Notes: generated by a model from the letters alone, not told the origin. DNA of 64,000 nucleotides from Bryobacterales bacterium (GCA_003152325.1 PLZX01000060.1:14534-78533), one strand, 5' to 3'; positions 6,229-44,295 are shown, counted from the first letter of the stretch. Made by a program: numbers and translations.

Positions 6229-6840
6229 TCAGTCTTGGGCCCGCACTCGCCAACTCACCAGAGCAAAGTACGCGAACAGCAATCCGGCCGCGGCCAACGG
6301 TAGCGCGCAGGAGCGGTGGATCAGGAACAGGGTCTGCTGTTCATCGGGACTTGGCAGAGGAAACATTGCCGCCAGAATGGAGACCATGGTCGGCACTGCC
6401 AACGCGACTGCGACCCAGAAAAAAATCTTTCGCAGCACCACAGCCCAGGCGCCGCCGGGCTCGGACGCTTCCGAACGCAGTCGCAAGCGTTTCCAATCCG
6501 CGGCCGTGAATTGGTTGCGGTGCGCCCAGAATATTGCGATCAGCGTGCCGGTAATCGCAAACATCGGCGCGGCGATCACGTGCGCCATGAGCCGGTAACC
6601 GCTCAGGCTGTTCTGCTCCGTGAGAACGGACAGAAAGCCGCTCCCCGCCACTGCCGCAAAGCAGGCAAGCCCGGCGAGATTGACCGAGACCCGTAGCAAT
6701 TTGAATAAGGGACTCGCCGTCCCTCGCTCGCGGAGGACCGCCTTTCGACGGAGCAGGATCCGGCAGACGGCGTCCACTGCGATGATCGCCAGGATCGCTA
6801 CCAGAACGTCAACGACCGCGGTTCGATACATAAATTTCAT
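6229..6840 (-). CDS. hypothetical polytopic membrane protein, translationally coupled to the multiheme cytochrome
   Basis: Start moved to ATG 6840 (MKFMYRTAVVDVLVAILAIIAV), which overlaps the cytochrome stop as ATGA. About 5-6 hydrophobic segments. Conserved-looking His residues in MAHVIAAP, FWAHRNQF, LIHRSC. Confidence 0.5.
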   Translation of the reverse strand: MKFMYRTAVVDVLVAILAIIAVDAVCRILLRRKAVLRERGTASPLFKLLRVSVNLAGLACFAAVAGSGFLSVLTEQNSLSGYRLMAHVIAAPMFAITGTLIAIFWAHRNQFTAADWKRLRLRSEASEPGGAWAVVLRKIFFWVAVALAVPTMVSILAAMFPLPSPDEQQTLFLIHRSCALPLAAAGLLFAYFALVSWRVRAQD

Positions 6841-8759
6841 TGCGTCCCGGCAACCTTCGCCGACAGGCCGACCAGGCCTTTCAAAACGAAGCCCAATATA
6901 AATAAGAACAACACCGCCGCTGCTCCCAAACCAATGATCTTGAGCCAGGGTCGGTAGATCCAAGAACTCGCCAGGCTGGACTGATAAGCAATATCCAGCT
7001 TCTTCTCAAAGCGATTCATCTTCCAGGGACGTTCGCCGCCGAGTGGCGAATCGACCGTGACATTTCCGAAAAAGATGGCTGCATCGCTGGAATGGCAATC
7101 CTGGCAACCGCGCGCGCCCAAGGCCTGCGAGGCCGGGCGGACATCATGACCGAGAGGCCACAAATACGGCTGGGCCTGTTGATGATCTTCGGACTTCAAC
7201 CGGCCCGCGGTATCCAGGCGCCGAAGTTTGCCGCCCGCGATATACACGGCAGCTCCTCGGCCCGCACTTTCCTGGTCAAGCACGCGAAGAACCTGCGTCA
7301 CCCAGGCGTCGTCGATCTTAGGCCAACTGCCATCGAGAGCCGGCTCGCGGTTCAGCTTGGCCACATCCAGAACACGTTTGACATCTTTCGGATTGAGTGG
7401 CTCTACCTGTTCCGATTTCAGTCTGCCCCAAAACGCCGGCCAGACCATCCGGTAAGGCGCGAGTCTTCCATCTGCCTCTTGCGCGAAAACGGGGTAATAG
7501 ATATGAGGCAGCGCTTCGGTCGCCTTGTTGACGTTGTGCTCACTGAGGCCATGCGCCAACCCGTTCTTCATGCGGTGGGTATCGGCGTCGGGCCAAGGCC
7601 CGGAATGGCAGGCCGTGCATGACAACTTTTCCAAGTGGAGAGGAGGGATGCCTCCGTGATCGGGATGGGGCGCGCCCAAACTGCGTCCCATTCCGGAATG
7701 CGGGCCAGTGGCCGTTCCCATATGGCAGCCGCGACAAGAGAGAGAAGCCGCAAACGCATCTTTGGCGGCAGGTTCCCCTTCGTATCCGCGAGTCATCGCA
7801 TGGTCGAGACCGTTGCGGTGGCATTGCACGCAGGTCATGCCGCGCGCCAGGTGAACATCCTCACTGGCTTCCCACCGGGAATTGCCGGTCTGCTCCACGT
7901 CGATATTGGTGTGGCAGTAATAGCAGCGGCTGGCCTTCACTTCCCTCACCACATCGAAAGCGACCTTGTCTCCCGGCAAGAAACGATTGCGCGCATAGTG
8001 CACAGTGGGAATGTCCGACTGCAAGGCGTCCTCTACCGAATTCGGCAGCAGGTAGTCGAAGAGGCTGGTCATCTGCTTCGTCGAACCGGTCATCATGGCG
8101 ATACTGGTGGCGGCCGTCGGCGCGTAGCGGAAATTCTCCATGGCGACCTGCCGGGCGTACTCCGCCTGATCGTAGGTGGGTGAGGCATCATGACAAGCCA
8201 GGCAGTTCACTTCGAGGTTGCCGGATACCTTCCAACGAGCTTCCTCGGCGTGATTGTCGCCGCCATCACTCATCAATCCGCCAGGCATTCGCCCGCCGAA
8301 GTGCAAGGCAAATTCCCTGACGCCCATCCCAAGTTGCGCCGGCCTGTAGGTTCCCGGCCACGAACGGTACGACAAAGGAATCTGCGTCGCGGTCGCTCCG
8401 TCGATCAAGAGCCATGGCTGACCCTTCCTACCGGCGGGGACTCCCGGCATCGTCGCATTGAAATGCCAGCCCCGGGTGATGGCCCGCACATCGTGGCAAT
8501 CGCCGCCGCATGTCTGGAGAGTCGAAAAAGGCAGCGGCCTGCGGTCGTCCGGCTGGATGGTATCGCCTTCGGGATCTCTCAGCGGAATGATATGGACTGG
8601 CTGCGCCAAACTGCCGGCTGGGTTATCACCAAGCAACACTTTGGGCGGCGCAGCCGGTTGAGGGGGAGCGGCGGGTTGTTTTCGGTCGCTCGAGGCGGCT
8701 GGGTGAGATACCACCACAGCGGCGGTCAGCAGAACCACGGCTAGGGAAATCCGTGACAT
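6837..8759 (-). CDS. multiheme c-type cytochrome (7 CxxCH), signal peptide and C-terminal TM anchor
   Basis: Seven heme-binding motifs: CGGDCH, CLACH, CYYCH, CVQCH, CRGCH, CTACH, CQDCH. N-terminal MSRISLAVVLLTAAVVVSHPAASS. C-terminal hydrophobic IIGLGAAAVLFLFILGFVL. Confidence 0.85.
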   Translation of the reverse strand: MSRISLAVVLLTAAVVVSHPAASSDRKQPAAPPQPAAPPKVLLGDNPAGSLAQPVHIIPLRDPEGDTIQPDDRRPLPFSTLQTCGGDCHDVRAITRGWHFNATMPGVPAGRKGQPWLLIDGATATQIPLSYRSWPGTYRPAQLGMGVREFALHFGGRMPGGLMSDGGDNHAEEARWKVSGNLEVNCLACHDASPTYDQAEYARQVAMENFRYAPTAATSIAMMTGSTKQMTSLFDYLLPNSVEDALQSDIPTVHYARNRFLPGDKVAFDVVREVKASRCYYCHTNIDVEQTGNSRWEASEDVHLARGMTCVQCHRNGLDHAMTRGYEGEPAAKDAFAASLSCRGCHMGTATGPHSGMGRSLGAPHPDHGGIPPLHLEKLSCTACHSGPWPDADTHRMKNGLAHGLSEHNVNKATEALPHIYYPVFAQEADGRLAPYRMVWPAFWGRLKSEQVEPLNPKDVKRVLDVAKLNREPALDGSWPKIDDAWVTQVLRVLDQESAGRGAAVYIAGGKLRRLDTAGRLKSEDHQQAQPYLWPLGHDVRPASQALGARGCQDCHSSDAAIFFGNVTVDSPLGGERPWKMNRFEKKLDIAYQSSLASSWIYRPWLKIIGLGAAAVLFLFILGFVLKGLVGLSAKVAGTQ

Positions 8760-10216: not shown

Positions 10217-11860
10217 TTACCCGATGAGACCTTCGGGCTTCCAACCCGGCCGGTATTCGCGGTTGAGGTATTTATTGGCCTCTTCGACGTTGGTGATTCT
10301 GCCTGCCGCGGAATCCCAGAGAAGCTTCTGGCCGCCCATTCGATAGGAGATGGCCACCAGATTGAAAGCTTCCGTGATGGGTTGCGCCAACAGGAAATCG
10401 CCGAAGGTCGGCGGTCCGCCCTTGATGGCTTCCACCCATGGACCAGCGTCGTTCGACCGGCCGGGGCCTGTGCCGCGCTGTTCGGGGCGCAACGGCGGAC
10501 GGCCTCCGGCGGCGCCGGCAGCCGCGCTGAAATTCATGTCCTGCAGCGGAGGAGGTGCTGCGATGCTTCTTTCCTTGCGGAATTCGGTGAACTTGCTTTC
10601 CGGAATGATTCGCGGGTTGTCACACTCAAATCCAGCGAGGATTTTTCCTTTGTCGCCCACCAGCATCATGCCTTCATTCGGCAAGGACCGGTCATCGGCC
10701 AACAGTTCGTCCGGCGTGGGCGGTCTCATGCCGCCGTCATACCAGAACAGGTCGAGAGCCGGCCGATCGCCCTTCTCGCGAAAACGCATTCGCGCGGTGC
10801 TGGCCAGGGGGAAGGAATAATCGTTGCGAATGCGGCTGACCGCATGGTTCGCCACCACCTGGCAGCCGCTGCTGATATTGGTCTCGACACTGAACGGGGC
10901 ATCCAGATTGAAGGTCTGGAAAACCGGCCAGTTACTGTAAATGCCCATGTCGTTGATGGCGCCGCCACCAAAGTCGTACCATCCACGGAAGGTCGTGTGG
11001 GTGTACCACGGATGATAGGGACGATCCAGAGCCGGTCCGAGCCACAAGTTCCAATCGAAGTCCTTGGGGATGGGCGGCTTTTCGGTCGGCAAGGTGAGGT
11101 ATTGAGGCCACACCGGGCGGCTGGACCAGTTGTGAATCTGGCGAAGCTGGCCGATGGCGCCTTCCTTGATCCAACCGGCGGCGGTTCGAAGTCCCAGCGA
11201 AATGCTGGCGGGCATATAGTGCGTCTTGAGCTTGGTCCGGCGGGCGGTTTCGATCACCAACCGGCCCTCATTGAGACGGTTCGCCATGGGCTTCGCCACC
11301 ACCACGTGCTTGCCCTTGTTCATGGCGGCGATGGCCACAATGGCATGCAGGTGATCCGGCGTGATGACCTTGACCGCATCCAGGTCCTTTTCTTTCTCCA
11401 GCAGTTCGCGGAAATCAACGTAGGTATTCACGCTGGGGAAGTTGTCGGTGCCGCGCTTTTTGGCGTAGAAAGTCTCGATGATTTCCTTTCCGACGTCTCG
11501 TCCGCCGGGCACCCAGTCCTTGCCTTCCCGCCAGTTCGGCTCGTCCAGCATCCGGCGGATGTCGTCGCGTACGCCATTGGGTGACCATTCCAGGTAGTTG
11601 CGGCCATCCTTTTCGACATCGCAGACCGCGGTCAAGTGGACCGACGGGTTTTCCAGTAAACTGGCAACCTCCCGGATGGCTTCAGTGCCGAAGCCAACGT
11701 GTGCCACGGTAATCTTGTCGCTGGGAGCAACATATCCCCGGCCCAGTACATGCCTCGGGACGATCGTGAAGGCGGCGGTGGTCAGGGCCGCGGATCCCAG
11801 AAATTTGCGTCGATTTATGTCAGATTCCATCTGGTCCTCTTTTGATTGCCAACTCCACAA
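10217..11860 (-). CDS. Gfo/Idh/MocA family oxidoreductase with twin-arginine signal and C-terminal extension (Gfo2)
   Basis: INRRKFLGSAALTTAAFTIVPRHVLG Tat motif. ITVAHVGFGTEA Rossmann block. HVVVAKPMA. Alternative start ATG 11830 (MESDINRRKF). Could also be a GH109-like NAD-dependent glycosidase. Confidence 0.8.
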   Translation of the reverse strand: MWSWQSKEDQMESDINRRKFLGSAALTTAAFTIVPRHVLGRGYVAPSDKITVAHVGFGTEAIREVASLLENPSVHLTAVCDVEKDGRNYLEWSPNGVRDDIRRMLDEPNWREGKDWVPGGRDVGKEIIETFYAKKRGTDNFPSVNTYVDFRELLEKEKDLDAVKVITPDHLHAIVAIAAMNKGKHVVVAKPMANRLNEGRLVIETARRTKLKTHYMPASISLGLRTAAGWIKEGAIGQLRQIHNWSSRPVWPQYLTLPTEKPPIPKDFDWNLWLGPALDRPYHPWYTHTTFRGWYDFGGGAINDMGIYSNWPVFQTFNLDAPFSVETNISSGCQVVANHAVSRIRNDYSFPLASTARMRFREKGDRPALDLFWYDGGMRPPTPDELLADDRSLPNEGMMLVGDKGKILAGFECDNPRIIPESKFTEFRKERSIAAPPPLQDMNFSAAAGAAGGRPPLRPEQRGTGPGRSNDAGPWVEAIKGGPPTFGDFLLAQPITEAFNLVAISYRMGGQKLLWDSAAGRITNVEEANKYLNREYRPGWKPEGLIG

Positions 11861-15124: not shown

Positions 15125-16630
15125 TCCTGAATCCCGAAGTTCAAGTGCGGGCGGCCGGTAAGGTCTGAGACAACAGAGGGGTGGAAACCAAGACCGCGGA
15201 CAAATCTGTTCCGCGGGAAATCACCGCTCTGCTGTCCAGCGAGCGGCTGATCCTAGCGCGAGACCAAACGGGCGGTCACGCCCTTCGGTGGAGTGGCCGT
15301 CTTCGTTTCCTTTCTACAGAGGATCGATTTTGGTGGGTCAACTGCGGCAGCACATGCCGGTCCAGTGGAAGTCACCGAATCAGATGGATCCCAGCTCTAC
15401 GTTCGTAGCCTTCCTGATGACCCTGCTGGTGGGTGCCAAGCGCTTCGCTCACGCCGCCCTGTTGCGGGGCGACCAGGCCCTGCAGGCGCTGTTGGGAATG
15501 AAACGGTTTCCCATCGACGACACCATCCGCAACCTGTTCCGGGCGTTCAGCATGGGACACGTACAACGCCTTTACGAGCCGCTGACCGAATGGCAGATGC
15601 AACGGTTGCCGCTGCGCGCCGAGGGCTATACGTTGGATCTGGATTCGACCGTCTTGGAGCGCTACGGCAAGCAGGAGGGATCGCTGAAAGGTCACAGCCC
15701 ACGCAAACACGGCCGCCCCAGTCATCATCCTCTACTGGCCGTGCTGAGCGAAGCGCACTTCCTCCTCCACGGCTGGCTCCGCAGCGGCAACTGCGGAACC
15801 GCCTGTGGCGCGAAGGAATTTCTCAAAGAAGCTCTCGCGCTGTGGGGACAGCGCCAGAAGATCCGTCGGCTAAGAGCTGATTCCGGCTTCTTCGCGGACC
15901 AGCTGCTGGGCTTTTTGGAACAGCGCCAGCTGCCCTACATTGTAGTCGCCCGCCTAGACGAAATGGGTAAAGCGGAGTGCGCAACGAGTGGAACAGTGGC
16001 GGGAAGTGGATGAGAACTTCGCGGTGGGCGAGTTCCGGCTACGGTTGCATGGCTGGAATGTGGAGCGGCGATTCGTGGCCATTCGGGAACGAGTGCGTGA
16101 GGGTCGGGACAGCGTAGGCCGCAAACTGATCGACGTGCCGGGCTACACCTTCCGCGTCTTCGTCACTAGTTGCCCCGACGCTCCCGAGGAGATCTGGCGC
16201 GATTACAACCGGCGCGCCGACATGGAAAACCGGATTGCCGAATTGAAGCACGACCTGGGCGCCGATGGCTTTTGCCTGAAGGAGTTCTTCGCCACCGAAG
16301 CCGCCTTTCGCGCGGTCCTGCTGCTGTTCAATCTCCTGGCCGAGTTCCAACGCGCCGCCGCATTGCCGAGCTATCGGGCTCCGGCGACGGTCCGCATGCA
16401 GGTCCGCACTTGCAGAGCCATTCTCGGCCGTGCCGGCCGCCGCCTGGTGGTCCACCTCTCCCAGAGTTGGGGCGGACTGAAATCACGAATCCCCTTGCTG
16501 GACAGCATCCTGACTTGTGAATTTCCAACTTCGCCGAAGTTGACGCCGGCCCTGGAAACCTGACCCGGAACGCCGCCGCCAAAACTCCCGCCGAAAGGAG
16601 AATCTATCGCTCAACTTCGGAATTCAGGAT
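15124..16630. mobile_element. decayed IS1380-like insertion sequence (1507 bp) with 18-bp terminal inverted repeats and 4-bp AATA target duplication
   Basis: IRL 15124..15141 is atcctgaatcccgaagtt. The reverse complement of IRR 16613..16630 is atcctgaattccgaagtt, a 17/18 match. Flanking direct repeats aata at 15120..15123 and 16631..16634. The interior encodes a DDE transposase broken across several frames. Confidence 0.8.
15181..16563 (+). pseudogene. IS1380-family DDE transposase, disrupted by multiple frameshifts
   Basis: Transposase-like text is spread over at least 3 frames. The pieces are VTPFGGVAVFVSFLQRIDFGG (frame of 15293), then QLRQHMPVQWKSPNQ...LDLDSTVLERYGKQEG...RSGNCGTACGAKEFL...RADSGFF (15288..16013), then WREVDENFAVGEF...YNRRADMENRIAELKHDLG (15988..16563). 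There is also an in-frame TAG at 15254. Confidence 0.75.
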
Positions 16631-16647: not shown

Positions 16648-18120
16648 TCAGCCGAGTTCCCAGCCTTTGCGGAATTTCGGCTTCAGGAACGCATTGGCTT
16701 CGGGGCGGTTGGTGATCTTCATCTTCTGGCTGTCCCATTCCAACTTGCCTTCAAAGTGAACCGCCATGGCCGCCAGCTGCACGATCTCGGTCAACGGCGC
16801 TGAGACGGAGAAGTTGGAGCAGGCGGGATCGCCTCCCTTACAGGCGCGGATCCAATCGGCATAGTGTCCCGGAGAACGGGTCAACACTTGCGGCGGCAGC
16901 TTGTACTCGCTGTGGCGTGCCAGCGGCAGCAGACGGACATTGGCGCCGTAATTATCAGTGGTGAGGTATCCCTTGGTGCCGACGAAGATGGCTCCGCTCC
17001 CGGTTGGCGTGTTGATCGCCCTGCCCTCAAATGTGGGGGCGTAGGGCGAGGCGGCGCGCGGCGCTCCATTCTTTGGCGCGATGAACATGGGAAGTCCGGG
17101 GGATAAGTCACCGTTGCCGCCGAAAGCGCCCTTGCCGCTGATCAGGGGTTCACTCTCTGGAATCCCTTCGGGGCGGTAGACGGGACCATCCGCCGCGTCC
17201 GACCAAAAAACCTTGACAGGAGCGAGTGCGCCGCGAGCGGGGAATTGAAACTCGGTGACGGATCTCTTGGGGAACGCGTAGGAACCTCGGTTCTCCTGCT
17301 TGACCACTTCGACCGAACAGGAAGAGCCGCCCAGACGGAGAGCCATGTTGACGGCTCCCCACACGTGGCATGCGATGTCACCCAGCGCGCCGCTGCCGAA
17401 ATCGAACCAGCCTCGCCAATTGAAGGGACAATACGCGGGACTGTAAGGCCGCATGGCCGCGGGCCCCAGCCAGACGTCCCAATCGAAACCGGCAGGCACC
17501 TTCTCCTCAGCCGGGCGCTTGTCCATGCCTTGCGGCCAGATGGGACGGTCGGTCCAGCAATGAACCTCCCGAACATCGCCGATCTCGCCCGACCAGATGA
17601 TCTCGGCTGCAATCCGCTCTCCTTCAAACGAATAACCCTGGTTGCCCATCTGCGTGGCGACCTTGAACTTCTCGGCGGCATCCGCCAGAAAGCGCGCTTC
17701 CCAAATGGAATGCGTCAGCGGCTTTTCACAGTAGACATGCTTGCCGTGCTGAATAGCCGCGTGGACCGCGACGGCGTGAGTGTGATCGGGAGTGGTAACG
17801 ATGACGGCATCGATATTCCCACTCTCCTTATCCAGCATGCGCCGAAAATCCTTGTGCTTGGCCGCCTTTTCATACTGCTGAAAGGTTGCGGCGGCGCGCT
17901 CGTCGTCGGGATCCGCAAAGGCCACCATGTTCTCCGCGGCGCAGCCTGCGATGTTGAAAACCGCCCTGCCTCCGGCGCCGATGGCGGCAATGTTCAGTTT
18001 CTCATTCGGCGATTTGAAACCGAGCTGCTTGAGCGATGGCGTGCTTCCGAATCCGCCGGAGGGTACGGCCCCCGCCAGCAGTGCTCCATAGAAAAAATGC
18101 CTTCTAGAAAACTTATTCAC
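16648..18120 (-). CDS. Gfo/Idh/MocA family oxidoreductase with twin-arginine signal (Gfo3)
   Basis: MNKFSRRHFFYGALLAGAVPSGGFG Tat motif. LNIAAIGAGGRA Rossmann block. HVYCEKPL. Directly downstream (9-nt gap) of a9. Confidence 0.85.
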   Translation of the reverse strand: MNKFSRRHFFYGALLAGAVPSGGFGSTPSLKQLGFKSPNEKLNIAAIGAGGRAVFNIAGCAAENMVAFADPDDERAAATFQQYEKAAKHKDFRRMLDKESGNIDAVIVTTPDHTHAVAVHAAIQHGKHVYCEKPLTHSIWEARFLADAAEKFKVATQMGNQGYSFEGERIAAEIIWSGEIGDVREVHCWTDRPIWPQGMDKRPAEEKVPAGFDWDVWLGPAAMRPYSPAYCPFNWRGWFDFGSGALGDIACHVWGAVNMALRLGGSSCSVEVVKQENRGSYAFPKRSVTEFQFPARGALAPVKVFWSDAADGPVYRPEGIPESEPLISGKGAFGGNGDLSPGLPMFIAPKNGAPRAASPYAPTFEGRAINTPTGSGAIFVGTKGYLTTDNYGANVRLLPLARHSEYKLPPQVLTRSPGHYADWIRACKGGDPACSNFSVSAPLTEIVQLAAMAVHFEGKLEWDSQKMKITNRPEANAFLKPKFRKGWELG

Positions 18121-18129
18121 GGTTCCTCC

Positions 18130-18975
18130 CTACGCCTTTGCATATTTGGCAATCAACCGCTTGACTAGCGTGTGATGCGCCTTTACGACCTCGAGCGAAT
18201 CGGCATACTCGCCCAACTCGCCGCCTTCGAATTCCGTGGACATCCAGCCTCTGAAGCCGCCTGCCACCAGGGCTTTCACGATGCCATCGTAAGGTATTGC
18301 CGGAACATCGCCCTTGACCATCTGGTGGAACTTGCCGTGGACGTGGTTAATGTAGGGCGCCAGTTCCTTCAAAGTCGCGGGATTGGACGGCGGCGGCACC
18401 TCACCTTCCGGACCGACCGTGCCAGGCGCGACTTTTTCGAAAATGCTGCAGTCCGGGATCAGCCCCAGGTGCGGTGAAGAGATCTTCTTGACCTGCTGAA
18501 TCAACTCCTGCCCGAGGGGCGTTTCGAACATGATCGGTGTGTGCACCTCATACCCGATCTTGAGTTTGAGTTTCTCGGCGTACGGCAGCAGCCGCTCGAT
18601 CACCTTATAAATGAAGTATTGCGCGCGCACCACCGGGAAGCCCAGGCGCGCAGCGCCTTTCAGTTGCGGAATCGTATACTCGACCAGATCATCGTCGGTC
18701 AGGTCGCGATCGTGCCAGAAGAAGGGATCGGCGTACGCACCGTAAGAAGTGGGAACCAGGCTGTAGCGCTGGCAGGCGTTCTTGAACGTGGTCTCGAATT
18801 CCTTGGGGACGTTCGGAAAATCGCGGTGGTGCTGCGGACCGACGATCTCGACGCCCATGCCAGGGCCGAGTTCCGAGGCCTTTTTCATGCACTCGTCAAA
18901 CGACCATTTGTACGAGTAGAATTCAGTGGTGAAGCTGTATAGCGTGACGCCCACGCGGAAGGTGTTGGTTGCCAT
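18130..18975 (-). CDS. a9: xylose isomerase-like TIM-barrel protein (sugar phosphate isomerase/epimerase family), no signal; candidate glycoside lyase large subunit
   Basis: 281 aa. MATNTFRVGVTLYSF with no signal peptide. Motifs YEVHTP, LIPDCSIF, HVHGKFHQM, STEFEG. Lies 9 nt after the b9 stop, with a GAGG RBS. Confidence 0.8.
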   Translation of the reverse strand: MATNTFRVGVTLYSFTTEFYSYKWSFDECMKKASELGPGMGVEIVGPQHHRDFPNVPKEFETTFKNACQRYSLVPTSYGAYADPFFWHDRDLTDDDLVEYTIPQLKGAARLGFPVVRAQYFIYKVIERLLPYAEKLKLKIGYEVHTPIMFETPLGQELIQQVKKISSPHLGLIPDCSIFEKVAPGTVGPEGEVPPPSNPATLKELAPYINHVHGKFHQMVKGDVPAIPYDGIVKALVAGGFRGWMSTEFEGGELGEYADSLEVVKAHHTLVKRLIAKYAKA

Positions 18976-18984
18976 ATTGCGTCC

Positions 18985-19566
18985 TCAATCCACCTCTAGG
19001 CTTAGCCGCTTGGTGACCGCCTCATGAGGCCTTGCCCGCCCGCGCCCGCCGGTGCCGAACGGACCCTTCACGTTGATGTTGGCGGTAACTTCGTGTTCGC
19101 CCGGCGAAAGCGGGGTGACCCTGGGAACGAACAACTCCGCCCGGTCCAGAACAAACCACCAGGGGACGTCCTGCCAGCGGGTCCACTTGGTGAGCAGGTC
19201 GGGGACACGGTGGCTGTAACGATTGAGCGTCAGGATCATGTCCTTCGGGTCGAATTCTTCTCCGTCGACCGTCACCTCGAAACCTTCGACGCAGCAGAGA
19301 GGCTCGGCGCGATAGGGAACCATTCGCACTACCAACTGAAATCCCCTCTGTCCCTCGAGGGTGGTGTTCTTGAAGCCGTCTTCGCACAGCCAGAGAGGGC
19401 TTCGGAGCAGGTTCGGGTGCTGTTGCGGGCTGGGTTTGGGCGGCTGCTGCGCGACTGCTTGCGAAGTCGCGAGACCCGCGGTCAACGCCGCGCCGGTTGC
19501 CACCATCAGGCTACGCCGCGTGACGACGCCGGCTGAAAGGGAGCCAGGTGCTCTCTCGTTCTGCAT
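18985..19566 (-). CDS. b9: small partner protein carrying a Tat signal
   Basis: Start moved to ATG 19566, preceded by GGAGA. MQNERAPGSLSAGVVTRRSLMVATGAALTAGLATSQAVAQQ. C-terminal domain DGFKNTTLEGQRGFQLVV...VEGFEVTVDGEEFDP...SPGEHEV is alignable with b1-b8. Confidence 0.65.
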   Translation of the reverse strand: MQNERAPGSLSAGVVTRRSLMVATGAALTAGLATSQAVAQQPPKPSPQQHPNLLRSPLWLCEDGFKNTTLEGQRGFQLVVRMVPYRAEPLCCVEGFEVTVDGEEFDPKDMILTLNRYSHRVPDLLTKWTRWQDVPWWFVLDRAELFVPRVTPLSPGEHEVTANINVKGPFGTGGRGRARPHEAVTKRLSLEVD

Positions 19567-19607
19567 ATCATCTCCTTTCCTGAACGCGATCGGATTCCGT
19601 CGCGGGT

Positions 19608-20651
19608 TCACAACTTAAACAAGCGCTCCGCGTTGAGGTGATAGATTCTCTCGCGGTCTTCGTCGCTCATCGGAGTTCTCTCAAAGAACTGCACCGCCAG
19701 GTCTCCGTTCACGGCGGCAAAGTCCGTGGCGAAGAGGATGTGATCCGAGCCTATGGCGTTGATGGCGCAAGTCAGGGCCTCCGGATGGTAGTGTCCGCTG
19801 GTGCTGATGAAGATGTTCTCCTTGATATAGGCGGAGGGCGGCTTCTTGACTTTCCATGCCCTGGCGCCTTCATCCAGGCGACCTAGCCAGTAGGGAAGCA
19901 GCTCGCCGAGGTGGCCCAGGATCAGTTTCGCTTTAGGGAATTCGTCGAAAACGCCGCTGCCGATGATGCGAAGAACCTGCGTCCCGGTATAGATGGCGCC
20001 GGCCCACATCAGGTTCTGAACCTCGGCGTGGCCTTCCAGCAACTTGACGGATTCGGAATTGGGAATGTTGGGATGCAGGTAGAGGGGCACTTCGAGCGAA
20101 GCGGCGCACTCCCACAGCGGCCGGAAGGCCTGCGAGTCCAGGAATTCCCAATGCACGTGATCCTGGCCTTCGATCATGGCGCCGCGGAGCTTGAGTTTCG
20201 TGACGGCGCGCTCCAGTTCGGCAACGGCAGCCTTGGGATCCTGCGTGGGCAGAGCGGCCATGCCCGCAAAACGAGTGGGGTGCTTCACCACCGCTTCCGC
20301 CAGAATTTCATTGTTTACTTTGGCCAGATCCGTGGCTTTCGCCGCATCCGTGAGGAACTGGTAAGAGCTGTTCGAGATCACCTGCATGGTGACGCCCGCC
20401 GCATCCATTTCGCCCAGGCGGATGGCATCCAGATCAGCCTGGCGGTTTGCAGTCCCAGATGGGGTCCGCCCGGCGGCTTCGATGACGTTCAACGCCGTCC
20501 AGTGTTCTTCAACGCCGATCTTCTTGAACTGCTTGGGGGGCGGCGGCACCGCCTGCTGCGCGTGTAAGTTTCCCTGCAGCATCAACGGGGCGCCTGCCGC
20601 AAGAGCGGCCGTCCTGCCGAGAAATCCTCTTCTTCCGATTGCGCCGTTCAT
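19608..20651 (-). CDS. amidohydrolase_2 family protein (LigW/ACMSD-like) with Tat signal
   Basis: Start moved to ATG 20651 (MNGAIGRRGFLGRTAALAAGAPLMLQGNLHAQQ). IGVEEHW N-terminal metal motif, LYLHP, ATDF near the C-terminus. Confidence 0.8.
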   Translation of the reverse strand: MNGAIGRRGFLGRTAALAAGAPLMLQGNLHAQQAVPPPPKQFKKIGVEEHWTALNVIEAAGRTPSGTANRQADLDAIRLGEMDAAGVTMQVISNSSYQFLTDAAKATDLAKVNNEILAEAVVKHPTRFAGMAALPTQDPKAAVAELERAVTKLKLRGAMIEGQDHVHWEFLDSQAFRPLWECAASLEVPLYLHPNIPNSESVKLLEGHAEVQNLMWAGAIYTGTQVLRIIGSGVFDEFPKAKLILGHLGELLPYWLGRLDEGARAWKVKKPPSAYIKENIFISTSGHYHPEALTCAINAIGSDHILFATDFAAVNGDLAVQFFERTPMSDEDRERIYHLNAERLFKL

Positions 20652-20781
20652 TTTGAACTCCTGTAGTGACCAGACAATCACCGTGCCGCCATGCCAGGGA
20701 TCTCCAGGCATGGCGGTTTCCTAATTCAACGGCCTGAGCTCAGCAACTTGAGCGCAGCGGCCGGGCCGGAGCAGGCGGTGC

Positions 20782-21855
20782 TTACGCCACCTCACCGAAC
20801 AGCTTGCGCAACATAGCGTGGTGCCGGCGGAGCTGGTCGGAAGCGCGGAACAGATCGCGCGGACCCTCATACTCACTGGAGAAGTAGTGCTCGTAGCCGC
20901 CCTCAATGAAAGTCGGAATCACTTGCTCGTAGGGAATGCTGTACTCGTGCAAGTCCTCGGTCATCTCCCAGAACTTGCCGTGGACGTGGTAGACGTACGG
21001 CATCAACGGGAGCAGGTCCTTGGGATTGTTGTTGCTGAAGTGATAGACCCCGGCGAATGAGGCATACCGCAGTTCGGCTTCGTTGCCACCCATCTTCTTG
21101 ACTTCGGCTGTCGTCTTGTCCGGCCCCAGGTTGTTGATATAGGCGTTTCGGATGTATTGAATGATCTTCTCGCGCCCGCCCTGCCGCATCACGACGTCAT
21201 CGCGATACCTAGGCGGAGTCTTCGTGAAGATGCTCATGTCGGGCGTGAAGCCGAAGTGTTTTGTCTTGGTCCGGGTGATGATGTCCATCAGCTTGTGGAC
21301 GTCGTCCGAATTGAGGATGGCCGGCGAATGAAGTTCGATCGCGATCTTGACGTCGTATTCTTCCGCGTAAGGCAGGGCCTTTTCGATCAACTCCGGCACG
21401 GGGATGTCGGAGCTGCCGAAGGTGGGACGATTCACCTTGAATCCAAGGCGCTTGGCCAGTTTGAAATCGCGGACCATCATGTCCAGCGATTCCTTAACGG
21501 TCAACTGCCGGTCTTTGTGGAGCAGAGAATCCACGAAACTATCGAGACAGCTCGGCTTGGTTTTGTACTTATCCATCAGGCCGTGCCATTCCTCCACCCA
21601 GCGGTCGGTCGGGTTCGGATAGCCGTCAACGTGCGACTCTCCCAGAATTTCGATGCCTTCCGCGCCCATGTCGGCCACGTCGGCAATGCACTGCTCCAGG
21701 CTCATGGTTCCAGCCTGGAAGTCGCCGGTATAGCTGTACAACGTGACGCCGCGCTTGATCTTCGAAAGCGAAGCCGCCTTCGCCGGAGTATCAGAAAGGT
21801 ACGCAGCCGCTGCCGCCGCACCCGCCACCGTTTTCAGGAAATTTTTTCTTGTCAT
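20782..21855 (-). CDS. a1: Tat-signal xylose isomerase-like TIM-barrel protein, candidate glycoside lyase large subunit
   Basis: 357 aa. MTRKNFLKTVAGAAAAAAYLSDTPAKA. Motifs GVTLYSY, IELHSP, FTPDMSIF, HVHGKFWEM, SSEYEG. Confidence 0.8.
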   Translation of the reverse strand: MTRKNFLKTVAGAAAAAAYLSDTPAKAASLSKIKRGVTLYSYTGDFQAGTMSLEQCIADVADMGAEGIEILGESHVDGYPNPTDRWVEEWHGLMDKYKTKPSCLDSFVDSLLHKDRQLTVKESLDMMVRDFKLAKRLGFKVNRPTFGSSDIPVPELIEKALPYAEEYDVKIAIELHSPAILNSDDVHKLMDIITRTKTKHFGFTPDMSIFTKTPPRYRDDVVMRQGGREKIIQYIRNAYINNLGPDKTTAEVKKMGGNEAELRYASFAGVYHFSNNNPKDLLPLMPYVYHVHGKFWEMTEDLHEYSIPYEQVIPTFIEGGYEHYFSSEYEGPRDLFRASDQLRRHHAMLRKLFGEVA

Positions 21856-21893
21856 TTTGATTTCTCCTTACCTGAGTCCTTTGCTTCGGGCAA

Positions 21894-22289
21894 TCAAACC
21901 ACGAGTGGCATTTTCTTTTGGAAAAGGTAAGTGGAAGGCTTGATGGGCATGTAGGGGACGCGGATCTTCTCGACCACCTGCACATCGTGCATCCCCACTT
22001 TAAGGCCACCCACCTTGCTAACGGTGAGCGTCGCAACGTCGCGGAACGGCCAGCGTTGATCGGTAAGGTTGGTCAACTCGTCCAGAGTGAACGTCTGGTT
22101 GCCGAGGGAAAAACGGATCTGTTCGCGCTTGAACGTCTCTCCGTCGATGGTGACGTCAAAGCCCTCAACCAGCGAGAGGTAAACTCCTCGATAGTAGGCG
22201 GTGCGGAGTTGCAGTTGAAAGCCAGTCACCTGCCCTGCGCTGCTCACATTTTTGAATCCGCCTGGAAGCACCATGTCCTGCTCGGGCAT
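21894..22289 (-). CDS. b1: small partner protein (no signal)
   Basis: Start moved to ATG 22289, preceded by GGAGA. MPEQDMVLPGGFKNVSSAGQVTGFQLQLRTAYYRGVYLSLVEGFDVTIDGETF...ATLTVSKVGGLKVGMHDV...MPLVV. Confidence 0.7.
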   Translation of the reverse strand: MPEQDMVLPGGFKNVSSAGQVTGFQLQLRTAYYRGVYLSLVEGFDVTIDGETFKREQIRFSLGNQTFTLDELTNLTDQRWPFRDVATLTVSKVGGLKVGMHDVQVVEKIRVPYMPIKPSTYLFQKKMPLVV

Positions 22290-22351: not shown

Positions 22352-22365
22352 CGATACAAGTGTCC
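22352..22365 (-). promoter_or_regulatory. candidate operator box GGACACTTGTATCG (gene orientation) upstream of b1
   Basis: Lies 62 nt upstream of the b1 ATG. Near-identical box GGACCACTTGTATCG at 51608..51622 upstream of b6. Confidence 0.3.
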
Positions 22366-22618
22366 TGCCAAAGTATACATGCGTGCGAGAGGATTTGGAA
22401 GGGTTTTGTGGTGTGAGGTGTTGGTTGTTGACGGACCGGAGGTTTTTCGGGAAGGGGTTGGTCGAGTTGAGTCAACCCCGACCGATTCGCTTACGCTCCC
22501 AGTTCTGTGGGGGTGCGTCGAACGAAGAGCGATCATCGCGATCCAAGAAGCGCTGGCTTTCAGCCGGCGGCAGCCAGGATTGGCTACCCGACAGAACAGG
22601 CGGTTCTGCGGCACATGT

Positions 22619-23893
22619 TTACCAGAAGTGGAAATCTACAATCCGCGGGGGGCCGACATTTCCGTTGATGACTTCCGTGCCAATTACCACCTGAAGGTTT
22701 TTTCTTTGCCAGCCCGCGGGCGCCTTCTTCGCCAGGGATTCCAGGTACTTGGACTGGGTTACAAACTCGCCTGCGGCCGTGGTGCCGTCCCTGCCCAGAC
22801 CGGCTAGAAGCAATACTGTCTGCTCCGTGCGAGGGTCGCTGAAGCGGGATATTACGGCCCAGTCTTCCGTGCGTCCCGAGTATGGCGCTGTGGGGTCGGC
22901 GCGCCATGGCGCCTGTGAACTCTTCTGACGGTCGACGATCTGCACCAGGCCGGTACTTGGATCTCGTTCGATGTAGAAACGCAATGCAGCGTTCAGACGC
23001 AGGGTCCAGGGATTGTTGATGGCGCCGATGAGAACGGAGGGCATCTTTCGCAAATCATCGAGGGTTAGCGACGCCGCGCGCCGGATTTCTACCTCTTTTC
23101 CGTCGGCCCCCAACATGGCGGAAACACGCGCCATGGTGATGGCGTCGGCGAAGCCTACCTGATCGGCGCGAAAGATCTCGAGCGAATTCAGCTCGTCGCC
23201 AGGCTTGGGAGGCTGGCCGGCATGAAGTGCCTGGTCCAGGCTTGTTCCAGCTCCCAGAATGATAGTGTCGGAGTTTCGCCAGATCGGCGTCCAGAAGGCT
23301 TTCCGCGGATCCTGGGGCCGCATGAGAACGCCCACGGCCGTAACCAGTGTGACCAAAATCACTCCCCCGATCAGCAAGGGTGTACGGTTACGAGCCTTTC
23401 TTGCGGACTGGGGAGCAATGGAAACACTGATATCCGGGGGAGTTTCAACGGCAGGCTGGGTGGAGACAGCCTGCTGCGCGGGCCCCGGATGCAGCGTTAC
23501 CGGCTCCAGGAAGCGGAATTCCGGAATGTACGATCCTGAAGCCACGTCAATCCGAAGTTCGGTTTCATGCCCAAGCTCGTGATAGTACTGGGCAAGGCGC
23601 TTGCGCACCTCCATGGCCGAGGTTCGGACAATCGGGTCTTCATTGGTATCGTAATCGGGCTGGCGTCCAAAAGCCGATATTCCGATGGTTCGTTCCTTCA
23701 ATTGCTCGCCGCGTCCCTCAAGCACTTCGCTCACCACGTAGCGTAGTAAAGAGTTGCAACGTTTGCTATTGCGGAACAGGTGGCTGGAGAGGATCTGCTC
23801 GAGTTGTGCGCGAATGGCGTCCCGATCCGCCTGCCTCTCCGGAGCGGAAGACGCAATCTCAGCGTCAGTGCCCGAAATGGTTCGTCCCTGCAT
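22619..23893 (-). CDS. ToxR/CadC-like membrane-anchored regulator (wHTH-like N-domain, one TM, periplasmic domain)
   Basis: 424 aa. N-domain LFRNSKRCNSLLRYVVSEVLEGRGEQLKERTIGISAFGRQPDYDTNEDPIVRTSAMEVRKRLAQYYHELGHETELRIDVASGSYIPEF parallels the OmpR/PhoB recognition-helix and wing pattern. TM segment TPLLIGGVILVTLVTAVGVLM. About 230 aa C-terminal domain. Confidence 0.55.
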   Translation of the reverse strand: MQGRTISGTDAEIASSAPERQADRDAIRAQLEQILSSHLFRNSKRCNSLLRYVVSEVLEGRGEQLKERTIGISAFGRQPDYDTNEDPIVRTSAMEVRKRLAQYYHELGHETELRIDVASGSYIPEFRFLEPVTLHPGPAQQAVSTQPAVETPPDISVSIAPQSARKARNRTPLLIGGVILVTLVTAVGVLMRPQDPRKAFWTPIWRNSDTIILGAGTSLDQALHAGQPPKPGDELNSLEIFRADQVGFADAITMARVSAMLGADGKEVEIRRAASLTLDDLRKMPSVLIGAINNPWTLRLNAALRFYIERDPSTGLVQIVDRQKSSQAPWRADPTAPYSGRTEDWAVISRFSDPRTEQTVLLLAGLGRDGTTAAGEFVTQSKYLESLAKKAPAGWQRKNLQVVIGTEVINGNVGPPRIVDFHFW

Positions 23894-34899: not shown

Positions 34900-35784
34900 T
34901 CAGGCCTTCGAGTACTTGGCGATCGCATCTTTGACAATCTTGTGATGCACCTGGACGACCTCGAAGGAGTTCTGGTATTCGCCCAGTTCCCCGCCCTCGA
35001 ACTCAGTTGACATCCAACCCTTGAATCCGAGCTTGAGCAGAAGTTCCGTAATCTTGTCGAACGGAACCGCGGGAATCGTACCCTTCTCGGCCCAGTGAAA
35101 TTTCCCGTGCATGTGCATCATCCACGGCGCAACATCCACCAGGCGCTCGTAGTCCGCCGCCGGGATGCGTTGAGGACTCTGTCCCCCGCCTTCTCCACGG
35201 CCTCCGGTTCCCGGCGCTGGACCCGCCGGACCCTTTCCTCCGCGCTCCTTTCTCCGGTCTTCAAACATGTTGCAGTCCGGATTGAAGCCCAGCCATTCCG
35301 AGTTGATCCGCTTCACGGTTTCGACCATCGTGCCTTCGGGATTCATGAGGTTGCTTCCCGAAGTGATCTCCACCGCCAACTTCACCTTCATCTTCTCTGC
35401 TACCGGCGCCAATCTCTCCAGCAACGGATCACACCCCGGCGTCTGGATGCGGCAGAGCGGAAAACCCAATTTCTTCGTGGTCTGCATCTGGAGAATGTGA
35501 AAATCGAAGCGATCATCCAGATCCACCACGATGGCGGCTTCCGAGTACGCACCATACTGCGTGGGGGTCAACTCCCAACGCTCGCAGCCGCTCTTGAAGG
35601 CGCGCTCAAACTCGTTGGAGAGTCCCGGCCAACAGCGGTGGTGCATCGGTCCCACGATCTCGACGCCCTTGTCGCCTCCCGTCATCGAGGCCAGTTGCAT
35701 GCAGTCTTCGAAGGACCACTCATGATTAAGGTATTCGAGCTGCAAGCTGTATAGCGAAGCGCCAACCTTAAATGTGTTTGCCAT
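34900..35784 (-). CDS. a10: xylose isomerase-like TIM-barrel protein without signal; the His of the E-x-H motif is replaced
   Basis: Start at ATG 35784 (MANTFKVGASLYSL), after GGGAGGA. VEITSG where the other nine a proteins have E(I/L/V/F)H. Other motifs FNPDCNMF, HMHGKFHWA, STEFEG. Carries a G/P-rich insert KERGGKGPAGPAPGTGGRGEGGGQSP. Confidence 0.75.
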   Translation of the reverse strand: MANTFKVGASLYSLQLEYLNHEWSFEDCMQLASMTGGDKGVEIVGPMHHRCWPGLSNEFERAFKSGCERWELTPTQYGAYSEAAIVVDLDDRFDFHILQMQTTKKLGFPLCRIQTPGCDPLLERLAPVAEKMKVKLAVEITSGSNLMNPEGTMVETVKRINSEWLGFNPDCNMFEDRRKERGGKGPAGPAPGTGGRGEGGGQSPQRIPAADYERLVDVAPWMMHMHGKFHWAEKGTIPAVPFDKITELLLKLGFKGWMSTEFEGGELGEYQNSFEVVQVHHKIVKDAIAKYSKA

Positions 35785-40767: not shown

Positions 40768-42114
40768 ATGTTGCCAGATTATCTCGCAAAGGCAGTCCCG
40801 AATCCCGTTAGCAAGCGCGCTCCCTGGTATACCAACACGGCACCCAGCTATGCCGGGATTTTTCTTTGGATCGCATTTTACAAGACGATTGCCACTGGGA
40901 CCATCACCCAGGCGGGGGTCGGTCTGTGCCTGACGGCATTAGTGGTGGCTGCCGTGCTCTGCTACTTCCTCTACTACCGGGTGCCGGCGACGTTGGGCAT
41001 GAGCACAGGCTATCCCCTTTATGTCGTCGGGAGTTCCACCTTCGGCACCAAGGGCGGATACTTCATGCCGGGGTTGTTGATGGGACTTCTGCAGATCGGC
41101 TGGTTCGCCATCGCCACTCTGGTGTCCGCTGATTTCATCCTGAAGGGACTCGGCATTGATGCCCAGCCCGGCAGTATGCCGTTCATCATTACGGGGGTGG
41201 TGTGGGGGCTGGTGTTCGCCTGGGTGGGCGCGAAAGGGATTCAGTACGTTTCAAAAGTCGCCCTGCTACTGAATGCCATCCCCTTGCTGATGCTGCTGGT
41301 GGTGCTGTTCCAGACCGCGGGAGGGATAGGAAATTACCGGGTTCCGGCAGGACATGAGAACGCGTTTGGCGGCTTCACCACCATGATCGCGATCGTCGCC
41401 GGCTTCTTTGCAACGGCAGGCGCGGCGGGCGCGGACTTCGGAATGAACGCGCGGCACAAGACCGATGTCAAATGGGGCGGACTGGTGGGCGTCACGCTGG
41501 CCGCGATTATCGCCGGCGGACTACCGCTGATCACCATCGCGGGCGCGCATGGCGCAAATCCGGCACTGGCCGGCTTCGACTACGACAACATTCTGCAATC
41601 CATCGGCGGGCCGATTGCGGCGGCCATGTTCTTCCTGTTTGCGATCGCATCAATTCCACCTACGTGCTTCTGCATCTTTATCGCAGGCAACAGCTTCTCT
41701 ACTATGATCCCGGGCGTCCCGCGGGTGGCGTCGTCGATGGCGGCAGCGTTTGTGGGCATCATTCTGGCGGTTACGGGGATCGCGGCGAATCTGGCGTCGT
41801 TCTTCACCATTGTGGGGGCATCGTTCGGACCGATTTGCGGCGCGATGACGGCGGATTATCTACTCTCTGGACGACGCTGGGCGGGACCGAGGCAGGGCGT
41901 GAACCTGGCCGGATACCTGGCCTGGGCATTGGGCTTCATTGTGGGAATCCTGCCATTCCTTCCGCTGCCGGCGGAGGTGAAGCCGTACCTGCAACCGGCG
42001 GTGATCTACAGTTACATCACAGGATTCGTTGTGTACGCCGTGCTGGCGAAGGCCGGCCTGGAGCCGAAAGCCGCACCCATGACGGAACCGGTCCCGGCTG
42101 CCAGCCACGCTTAG
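40768..42114 (+). CDS. NCS1-type (purine-cytosine permease-like) transporter
   Basis: 448 aa, about 12 TM. N-terminal PWYTNTAPSYAGIFLWIAF and the overall layout resemble the CodB/CytX-like NCS1 family. GAGGA RBS. Confidence 0.55.
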   Translation: MLPDYLAKAVPNPVSKRAPWYTNTAPSYAGIFLWIAFYKTIATGTITQAGVGLCLTALVVAAVLCYFLYYRVPATLGMSTGYPLYVVGSSTFGTKGGYFMPGLLMGLLQIGWFAIATLVSADFILKGLGIDAQPGSMPFIITGVVWGLVFAWVGAKGIQYVSKVALLLNAIPLLMLLVVLFQTAGGIGNYRVPAGHENAFGGFTTMIAIVAGFFATAGAAGADFGMNARHKTDVKWGGLVGVTLAAIIAGGLPLITIAGAHGANPALAGFDYDNILQSIGGPIAAAMFFLFAIASIPPTCFCIFIAGNSFSTMIPGVPRVASSMAAAFVGIILAVTGIAANLASFFTIVGASFGPICGAMTADYLLSGRRWAGPRQGVNLAGYLAWALGFIVGILPFLPLPAEVKPYLQPAVIYSYITGFVVYAVLAKAGLEPKAAPMTEPVPAASHA

Positions 42115-42138
42115 GCGAGCAAGAAATAGGAGGATATT

Positions 42139-43098: not shown

Positions 43099-43107
43099 GG
43101 AACGGCG

Positions 43108-44262: not shown

Positions 44263-44295
44263 AAGCTTGATTGACGACGCTGAGCAATACAATCT

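Follow-up and report, generated by a model that had tools for sequence, protein, structure and literature searches.

Organization of the six-gene module

We analysed a 64,000-nucleotide stretch of DNA (the window, to which positions refer unless a contig is named) from a Bryobacterales metagenome-assembled genome (MAG; GCA_003152325.1, PLZX01000060.1:14534-78533). Six genes, b1, a1, amidohydrolase_2, b9, a9 and Gfo3, lie on its minus strand between positions 16648 and 22289 and, judged from their sequence, most likely form an exported set that strips sugars from plant C-glycosides in a soil acidobacterium. C-glycosides are resistant to ordinary glycosidases; examples are vitexin, orientin, puerarin, nothofagin, mangiferin and carminic acid. 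The products are assigned to two pairs of C-glycoside deglycosidase (CGD) subunits, an amidohydrolase and an oxidoreductase (lengths in amino acids, aa; Tat, twin-arginine translocation):

21894-22289, minus strand: b1, CGD beta subunit, 131 aa; PF19906, 1.1e-38; no signal peptide
20782-21855, minus strand: a1, CGD alpha, long form, 357 aa; PDB 8qvc, 2.5e-69; Tat-like TRKNFLK
19608-20651, minus strand: amidohydrolase_2, 347 aa; PF04909, 3e-38; PDB 3s4t, 1.8e-59; Tat signal
18985-19566, minus strand: b9, CGD beta, long form, 193 aa; PF19906, 1.8e-16; twin-arginine signal
18130-18975, minus strand: a9, CGD alpha, short form, 281 aa; PDB 7bvr, 3e-41; no signal
16648-18120, minus strand: Gfo3, 490 aa; NF058561, 415 bits; PDB 8tdf, 1e-93; Tat signal

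The spacers measure 38 nucleotides (nt) between b1 and a1, 130 nt between a1 and the amidohydrolase gene, 41 nt from there to b9, and 9 nt on either side of a9. A preliminary description of this DNA had given the same six minus-strand genes, coordinates for some of them, a gap of about 130 nt and gaps of 41, 9 and 9 nt, all of which the gene map confirmed; it had also correctly named an amidohydrolase_2 with a twin-arginine signal, for which we find PF04909 and the motif GRRGFL. Shine-Dalgarno-like AGGAG precedes the ATG of b1 and lies 8 nt upstream of the amidohydrolase start. GGAGA stands ahead of the b9 ATG, a start that the orthologue on metagenome contig L067 supports; there is an alternative GTG at 19611. 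Pfam places a1 and a9 among the xylose-isomerase-like TIM barrels and finds GFO_IDH_MocA plus C2 in Gfo3.

Export signals were read directly off the sequence. Besides that of the amidohydrolase, twin-arginine motifs are present in Gfo3 (SRRHFF; N-terminus MNKFSRRHFFYGALLAGAV) and b9 (TRRSLM...AVA-QQ). Inspection of b1 and a9 revealed no signal; with signals on a1 and b9, there is therefore exactly one export signal per lyase pair.

The arrangement is not due to chance, as the core gene order and spacers of about 10 nt recur at 80-91% protein identity on contigs from other samples. On L091, L092 and L067 the same order is found, with the amidohydrolase 88% identical, b9 80% and a9 91% (both in L067/L091) and Gfo3 82%. 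The pair upstream of the amidohydrolase gene is variable: the one on L091 resembles a4 (65%) and shares just 52% identity with a1. We regard amidohydrolase-b9-a9-Gfo3 as the core operon and b1-a1 as a neighbouring cassette, which may be transcribed with it or separately.

L091 (JGI 3300037139) also holds near-identical orthologues of other window genes (a8 97%, b8 95%, an MFS protein 92%, an S15 hydrolase 88%) next to the less similar ones (Gfo3 82%, b9 80%), in a gene order that differs from that of the window. Cassettes appear to have been shuffled between close relatives.

Gfo3 and the glycoside 3-dehydrogenases

Alistipes (AL1-AL3) and Bacteroides thetaiotaomicron (BT2156-BT2158) cleave glycosides by oxidation, elimination and hydration (10.1101/2024.03.25.586180; PMC8121099). 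The dehydrogenase AL3 carries a twin-arginine signal, binds NAD tightly, crystallises with it and is unaffected by added NAD(P)(H), the enzyme being recycled by the 3-keto-sugar; its active site comprises Gln161, Arg192, Trp195, Asp248, His252 and Tyr349 (10.1101/2024.03.25.586180). BT2158 has been proposed to be Tat-exported with bound NAD(P), in the manner of GFOR (Liu et al. 2021, PMC8121099).

Several comparisons identify Gfo3 as a relative, by sequence, of the AL3/BT2158 glycoside 3-dehydrogenases. Its best NCBIfam model was NF058561, 'BT_2158_fam glycoside 3-dehydrogenase' (415 bits, E 3.6e-124); other NCBIfam models scored 69 bits or less, including iolG (69 bits; cut-off 355) and levoglucosan dehydrogenase (59 bits). 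Its best PDB chains were 8tdf (1e-93) and 8tdh (5e-91), and its Rossmann domain matched PF01408 (1e-17). The crystallised 8tdf chain starts at the residue aligned to Gfo3 residue 30, and we take 8tdf to be AL3 because its numbering, at a constant offset of 29, reproduces the active-site residues of the preprint. All six of these are matched in Gfo3, by Q161, R192, W195, D248, H252 and Y391.

Other members of the fold gave far weaker matches, restricted to the Rossmann part: DgpA (9m3d 6e-12, 7xr9 4e-11, residues 41-201 only), levoglucosan dehydrogenase (6a3f 2.7e-10) and GFOR (about 1e-8). Together with the iolG score, these ruled out Gfo3 as a relative of DgpA, GFOR, LgdA or inositol dehydrogenase. 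The resemblance to dgpA-dgpBC seen in the preliminary description holds for the logic of the gene set and not for descent of the oxidase, which matches DgpA only in this part.

The same description had raised the alternative that Gfo3 is a GH109-like NAD-dependent hydrolase; this, or an inositol or sugar-1-dehydrogenase, would be unrelated to the lyases. Fold and Tat signal are indeed shared with such enzymes. Against this, GH109 (6t2b) matched only the N-terminal domain (E 4.2e-5, 25.8 bits), compared with 1e-93 for 8tdf, iolG fell far short of its cut-off, GFOR reached only 1e-8, and the AL3 active site is fully kept. Gfo3 therefore groups with neither GH109 hydrolases nor inositol dehydrogenases, and we give this explanation almost no weight.

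A second putative oxidoreductase of the window, Gfo2 (10217-11860), is also related to AL3/BT2158 (282 bits), with Ala, Tyr and Glu at the positions of AL3 Gln161, His252 and Tyr349. It shares an operon with a multihaem cytochrome c (6837-8759), which may bear on the remark that cytochromes could re-oxidise AL3-type enzymes (10.1101/2024.03.25.586180).

The b1/a1 and b9/a9 lyase pairs

In PDB searches a1 matched the solved CGD alpha subunits 8qvc (2.5e-69), 7bvs (3.8e-63), 7bvr (8e-47) and also 7dnm, and a9 matched 7bvr (3e-41) and 7bvs (2e-32). For AgCGD2, Mori et al. (2021, PMC8563793) give the Mn site and catalytic residues as E147, D179, H269, K271 and E305, together with E307 and the base H149. 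In a1 the residues corresponding to E147, H149, D179, H269, K271, E305 and E307 are E174, H176, D206, H292, K294, E328 and E330, and in the alignment of a9 all seven are likewise identical, as they are in 10 of 11 further aligned alphas (ten paralogues on the contig and 8qvc). Because of these seven identical residues and the homology to CGDs, b1/a1 and b9/a9 are assigned by sequence to the CGD family. A PF19906 beta gene stands directly upstream of the alpha gene in both pairs. The length of a9 is EuCGD-like, and its signal is borne by the partner b9, whereas the long alpha a1 bears its own; a9-type pairs in metagenomes had the RR signal on the beta subunit in every case.

The exception among the paralogues is a10 (34900-35784), the sole alpha with Thr at the position of the catalytic base H149; its other six residues are kept.

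It is also possible that the heterodimers are general beta-eliminases of 3-keto-glycosides that act on phenolic O-, S- or N-glycosides rather than C-glycosides, in which case the module would simply be the AL/BT pathway in an acidobacterium, its lyase made of two subunits. AL3-type dehydrogenases are broad, the O-glycoside pathway uses the same DUF1080 and Gfo partners, and the fourteen divergent pairs of this genome suggest a wide range of aglycones. We nevertheless consider this explanation unlikely. Both alphas are homologous to CGDs with proven C-C cleavage, and the residues to which enolisation of the aromatic ring and deprotonation of C2 were assigned, the His base and the Glu, are kept in them. 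No PF19906 beta subunit is yet known outside the CGDs, and the known O-glycoside eliminase AtOGE is unrelated in sequence.

Linkage of Gfo3-type genes to CGD pairs

Three lines of evidence indicate that Gfo3 is coupled to the CGD lyases: a parallel module, metagenome homologues and a phylogenetic tree. The parallel module lies on the minus strand of the contig that carries the window (C149:7948-15129), to the left of the window and continuing into its positions 1-596, in the order regulator paralogue, b-a, PhlG-type hydrolase, b-a, Gfo3'. Gfo3' and Gfo3 share 64-66% identity, and the alpha after the regulator shares 60% with a1. The metagenome homologues, by identity to Gfo3, are arranged as follows:

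P0002, 82%: b-a-Gfo-DUF1080
P0003, 75%: alpha C-terminus-Gfo-DUF1080; only the C-terminal end of the alpha is visible, at the contig edge
P0005, 74%: b-a-TonB receptor-Gfo
P0008, 72%: a-b-a-Gfo
P0006, 71%: b-a-Gfo
P0007, 69%: b-a-Gfo, in three samples
P0020, 68%: regulator-Gfo-b-a-b-a
L079, about 68% (inferred from its near-identical tree neighbour P0020): regulator-Gfo-b-a-b-a
P0027, 67%: no CGD beta
P0016, 65%: no CGD beta
P0050, 64%: no CGD beta

CGD pairs thus adjoin 8/8 examined metagenome homologues at 68% identity or more, and six of these show both subunits. On contig L093, two b-a pairs, two amidohydrolase_2 genes and a Gfo3-type gene stand in a row, with two more Gfo3-type genes and a pair nearby. 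Altogether, at least 12 independent samples show genes of the Gfo3 subclade in synteny with CGD pairs, and so does the second module on the same contig.

More distant homologues lack this linkage. No CGD gene was found within 10 kb of 20 Gfo3-homologue loci (40-55% identity) in 200 other genomes of the phylum. In named species-representative genomes (Bryobacteraceae, Bryobacter, Solibacteraceae and others; 61% identity or less) eight loci were taken, one on a contig that stops at the match, and none of the seven readable ones had a CGD beta nearby. Linkage to CGD genes is thus limited to one subclade, whose members come solely from this MAG and from metagenome contigs. In a maximum-likelihood tree of 84 rows, 10/10 linked proteins fell inside the 45-row clade of Gfo3 (SH-aLRT 84), nested in a well-separated clade of 63 rows (100), and one change of state accounts for the 10 linked and 22 unlinked rows.

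The preliminary description had proposed that Gfo3 works in the periplasm as the cognate 3-oxidase for b9/a9 and possibly for b1/a1. So far as sequence and gene context go, its AL3-type grouping and active site support this, as does the synteny. Gfo3 might instead only reduce and recycle the released keto-sugar, or act on free disaccharides like BT2158, with a flavin oxidase or another enzyme carrying out 3-oxidation. CGDs elsewhere do pair with FAD/GMC oxidases, contig L084 has a GMC-like gene near an a9-type pair, and AL3 catalyses both directions. However, there was no GMC oxidase among the Pfam-scanned and paralogue-screened open reading frames (ORFs) of the window, nor an obvious one on a coarse ORF map of C19, a second contig of the MAG; the synteny between Gfo3 and CGDs is clade-specific and extends over many samples; and the ping-pong mechanism of AL3 makes oxidation and reduction two halves of one cycle. 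This division of labour is, in our judgement, quite improbable.

Genome-wide there are 14 CGD betas and 2 Gfo3-clade genes, numbers compatible with one broad oxidase serving several lyases.

The hydratase and the flanking insertion sequence

3-Ketoglucose, by which the dehydrogenase is re-oxidised, is formed from 2-hydroxy-3-keto-glucal by DUF1080 proteins acting as hydratases (10.1101/2024.03.25.586180). A gene of this family (PF06439, DUF1080, '3keto-disac_hyd') follows Gfo3 on L091, L092 and L067. A search of the MAG found no homologue of the L091 type in the genome. The only candidate hydratase in this genome is a 495-aa DUF1080 protein with a Tat signal, encoded at C19:10442-11929. The same region of C19 (1-25000) contains a b-a pair, an a9-type pair, a TonB receptor and an amidohydrolase_2 close to that of the window (2e-96). 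Also encoded there are a Tat-signal amidohydrolase with a DVHHH motif and a protein that seems to resemble, at its N-terminus, the PhlG-type hydrolase from the parallel module.

On its downstream side the module is bounded by an insertion sequence:

15126-16628, plus strand: insertion sequence, 1.5 kb; DDE_Tnp_1_4 transposase split into two overlapping ORFs

The inverted repeats at its ends are complementary at 15 of 16 positions, and a 5-bp direct repeat, ATAAT, flanks it as a target duplication. The gap into which it is inserted measures about 20 nt and lies between two convergent stop codons, one of Gfo3 and one of a 3-hydroxyacyl-CoA dehydrogenase gene. Because the element and its 5-bp duplication lie inside this stop-to-stop gap, nothing was displaced by it, and we rejected the idea that it had destroyed a DUF1080 gene downstream of Gfo3.

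The amidohydrolase and its counterpart in the parallel module

The closest PDB matches of the amidohydrolase were gamma-resorcylate decarboxylase (3s4t 1.8e-59; 2dvt 1.3e-55) and LigW (4icm 3e-49), and JGI names its homologues 2,3-dihydroxybenzoate decarboxylase. The alignment places its motifs EEH, YLHP, GHLGE and ATD at E8/H10, H164, H218 and the catalytic Asp, with residue roles as in 2DVT; both the catalytic His and the Glu/His/His/Asp metal site are conserved there. The protein is thus a candidate non-oxidative hydroxybenzoate decarboxylase of the gamma-resorcylate/LigW type. A twin-arginine signal is unusual for such an enzyme, the characterised members known to us being cytoplasmic.

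The counterpart in the parallel module is a PhlG-type protein with a 2,4-diacetylphloroglucinol (DAPG)/phloretin-hydrolase domain (PF18089, 6.7e-75), in which no signal was seen. By family it is a C-C hydrolase of acylphloroglucinols, and phloretin hydrolase is a member of the PhlG family. Both the decarboxylase and the PhlG-type hydrolase would act on a resorcinol- or phloroglucinol-type ring and take a carbonyl substituent off it. As this is the ring that is C-glycosylated in flavonoid-type C-glycosides, the pair of enzymes would support a role of the modules in the use of aryl C-glycosides.

Upstream regulator and the a1-amidohydrolase spacer

Two further features belong to the surroundings of the module:

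22619..23893, minus strand: membrane-anchored regulator candidate upstream of b1; no Pfam hit
20686-20716: palindrome CCGCCATGCC-N11-GGCATGGCGG in the a1-amidohydrolase gap, with a perfect 10-bp stem and no U-tract

The regulator candidate is 47% identical to the paralogue ahead of the parallel module (C149:13846-15129), and homologues flank CGD-Gfo modules on L079 (3e-113), L069 (9e-102), L091 (1e-109) and L090 (about 1e-25, a fragment at the contig end). The palindrome is unique in the window, where none is expected by chance; the 130-nt gap as a whole folds at -53.6 kcal/mol (z -1.7). At the position of this gap, L091 has a gene of 272 aa for a CarboxypepD_reg fragment, between the upstream pair and the amidohydrolase gene. 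A sigma-54-like box upstream of b1 (TGGCA-N6-TTGT, 22356-22370) was rejected as not significant, with 2 matches in the window against 1.2 expected.

Host assignment and distribution of PF19906

The MAG is 82% complete with an estimated contamination of 5%. Both C149 (58.7% GC) and C19 (58.8%) lie 2.7-2.8 standard deviations below the MAG mean (62.1 +/- 1.25%); in tetranucleotide space each of the two has the other as its nearest neighbour, and no MAG contig of at least 40 kb deviates more than C149. Source names attached to homologues are those of Bryobacteraceae/Solibacteraceae-type Acidobacteriota. PF19906 was found in 0/60 relatives (genus, family and order) and in one of the 200 other genomes sampled from the phylum, and is absent from 199/201. 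Such rarity may reflect either a horizontally acquired island or a mis-binned contig; since C149 and C19 deviate in composition and may have been binned wrongly, we do not take it to prove a recent acquisition.

A proposed periplasmic pathway for aryl C-glycosides

In our view the region probably specifies a periplasmic system that acts on aryl C-glycosides by the principle 'oxidise, then eliminate'. Gfo3 would fold with non-exchangeable NAD in the cytoplasm, be exported through the Tat pathway and oxidise the C3-OH of the glycoside's sugar. The C-C bond of the resulting 3-keto-C-glycoside would then be cleaved by beta-elimination, by b9/a9 and probably b1/a1 too, to give the phenolic aglycone and 2-hydroxy-3-keto-glucal. 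The CGD heterodimers are expected to be metal-dependent (Mn in the solved homologues), and each would leave the cytoplasm by means of the single Tat signal on one subunit, the other hitchhiking. Tat export would suit proteins that fold around NAD or Mn before export, and heterodimers with one signal. Hydration of the product would fall in relatives to the DUF1080 protein encoded directly after Gfo3 and here to the sole candidate, that of C19; the hydrated keto-sugar would be reduced back to the hexose by Gfo3-NADH, making the cycle redox-neutral. The exported amidohydrolase may remove a carboxyl group ortho to the phenol, on the substrate or on the aglycone, and the membrane-anchored upstream regulator probably controls the unit.

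Several observations weigh against this proposal. Gfo3, like its whole clade (390-470 bits), scores under the equivalog cut-off of NF058561 (415 vs 750 bits), and its C-terminal third is divergent, so that the substrate range of AL3 is not transferable to it. Unlike the orthologous cassettes, the module has no DUF1080 hydratase gene next to Gfo3; the set that the preliminary description called complete is so for oxidation and cleavage and not for this step. The signal of a1 has RK in place of RR. The b1/a1 pair stands outside the conserved core, from which it is separated by the 130-nt gap with a strong hairpin, and a promoter and terminator scan gave counts equal to those of shuffled sequence, which speak neither for nor against one transcription unit. 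Finally, the compositional deviation of C149, in a MAG with 5% contamination, makes the host assignment uncertain.

A more far-reaching version of this proposal, which we put forward tentatively, is that of a cofactor-autonomous, redox-neutral periplasmic machine with Gfo3 as its hub, interchangeable CGD heterodimers that set aglycone specificity, and exported ring-tailoring enzymes. One AL3-type dehydrogenase with captive NAD might then oxidise many aryl C-glycosides and reclaim the hydride onto the keto-sugar. The 14 CGD heterodimers of the genome, each with a signal on one subunit only, might supply the specificities, and ring-tailoring might fall to the hydroxybenzoate decarboxylase here and to the PhlG-type acylphloroglucinol hydrolase in the sister module. 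If so, this would be a previously undescribed extracytoplasmic route for the degradation of flavonoid-type C-glycosides in soil Acidobacteriota.

To our knowledge, only two kinds of oxidase partner are known for C-C lyases, the DgpA-type NAD enzymes of gut Firmicutes and the FAD oxidases of actinobacteria. The module points to a third kind: in soil Acidobacteriota, which are abundant but poorly cultured, an AL3/BT2158-type dehydrogenase with captive NAD would act outside the cytoplasm. Sets of enzymes for use in biocatalytic deglycosylation could also be drawn from the module, and it would serve as a test case of how enzyme complexes loaded with metal and NAD are exported by Tat.

Comparison with known systems

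Compared with the AL/BT systems, the module has in common a Gfo3 homologous to AL3/BT2158 with its Tat signal and six active-site residues, the AL2-type DUF1080 gene that follows in orthologous cassettes, a predicted periplasmic location and, presumably, the logic of redox-neutral recycling of bound NAD. It differs in that the lyase is a two-subunit CGD, whereas theirs is an AL1-type single-chain TIM barrel; in addition, a putative decarboxylase is part of the unit, Gfo3 lies below the equivalog cut-off, and the host is an acidobacterium, not one of the Bacteroidota. C-glycosides are oxidised by AL/BT3, but the resulting 3-keto-C-glycoside is not cleavable by the AL/BT1 lyases (10.1101/2024.03.25.586180), as these systems are without a two-subunit CGD. 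The module, if our proposal is true, would be their natural complement.

In the gut, C-glycosides are deglycosylated by DgpA-DgpB-DgpC of strain PUE and DfgA-E of Eubacterium cellulosolvens (PMC8563793, PMC9939296). The b/a pairs are homologous to DgpB/DgpC (7bvr, 3e-41 to 8e-47) and share their beta-then-alpha order, and an NAD-type Gfo/Idh/MocA 3-oxidase is likewise encoded alongside. Gfo3 is, on the other hand, not an orthologue of DgpA (6e-12, N-terminal domain only), and the gut enzymes are described as soluble and are presumably cytoplasmic, whereas here every component, or one subunit per pair, has a Tat signal. CarA-CarB-CarC of Microbacterium, AgCGD/MtCGD of soil actinobacteria and the Deinococcus-type CGD (8qvc), to which a1 is closest, are also soil CGD alpha/beta heterodimers; their oxidase, however, is a FAD-dependent GMC enzyme that uses O2 and not an NAD-bound Gfo/Idh/MocA protein. 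The amidohydrolase shares its amidohydrolase_2 fold and its metal and catalytic residues with gamma-resorcylate decarboxylase, LigW and 2,3-dihydroxybenzoate decarboxylase (3s4t, 2dvt, 4icm) and differs from them in its twin-arginine signal. All parts are thus of known kinds; in the searchable literature we found no paper that joins a CGD with Tat export or with an AL3-type dehydrogenase, nor a description of the combination of an AL3/BT2158-type dehydrogenase, Tat-targeted CGD heterodimers and an exported hydroxybenzoate decarboxylase.

Elsewhere in the window, a plus-strand cluster (40768-45189) encodes a permease, a lone xylose-isomerase-like TIM barrel (319 aa, with no beta partner), a levoglucosan-dehydrogenase-like Gfo protein (170 bits, no signal) and an FAA-family hydrolase. 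Through this cluster the keto- or anhydro-sugar product may be processed in the cytoplasm.

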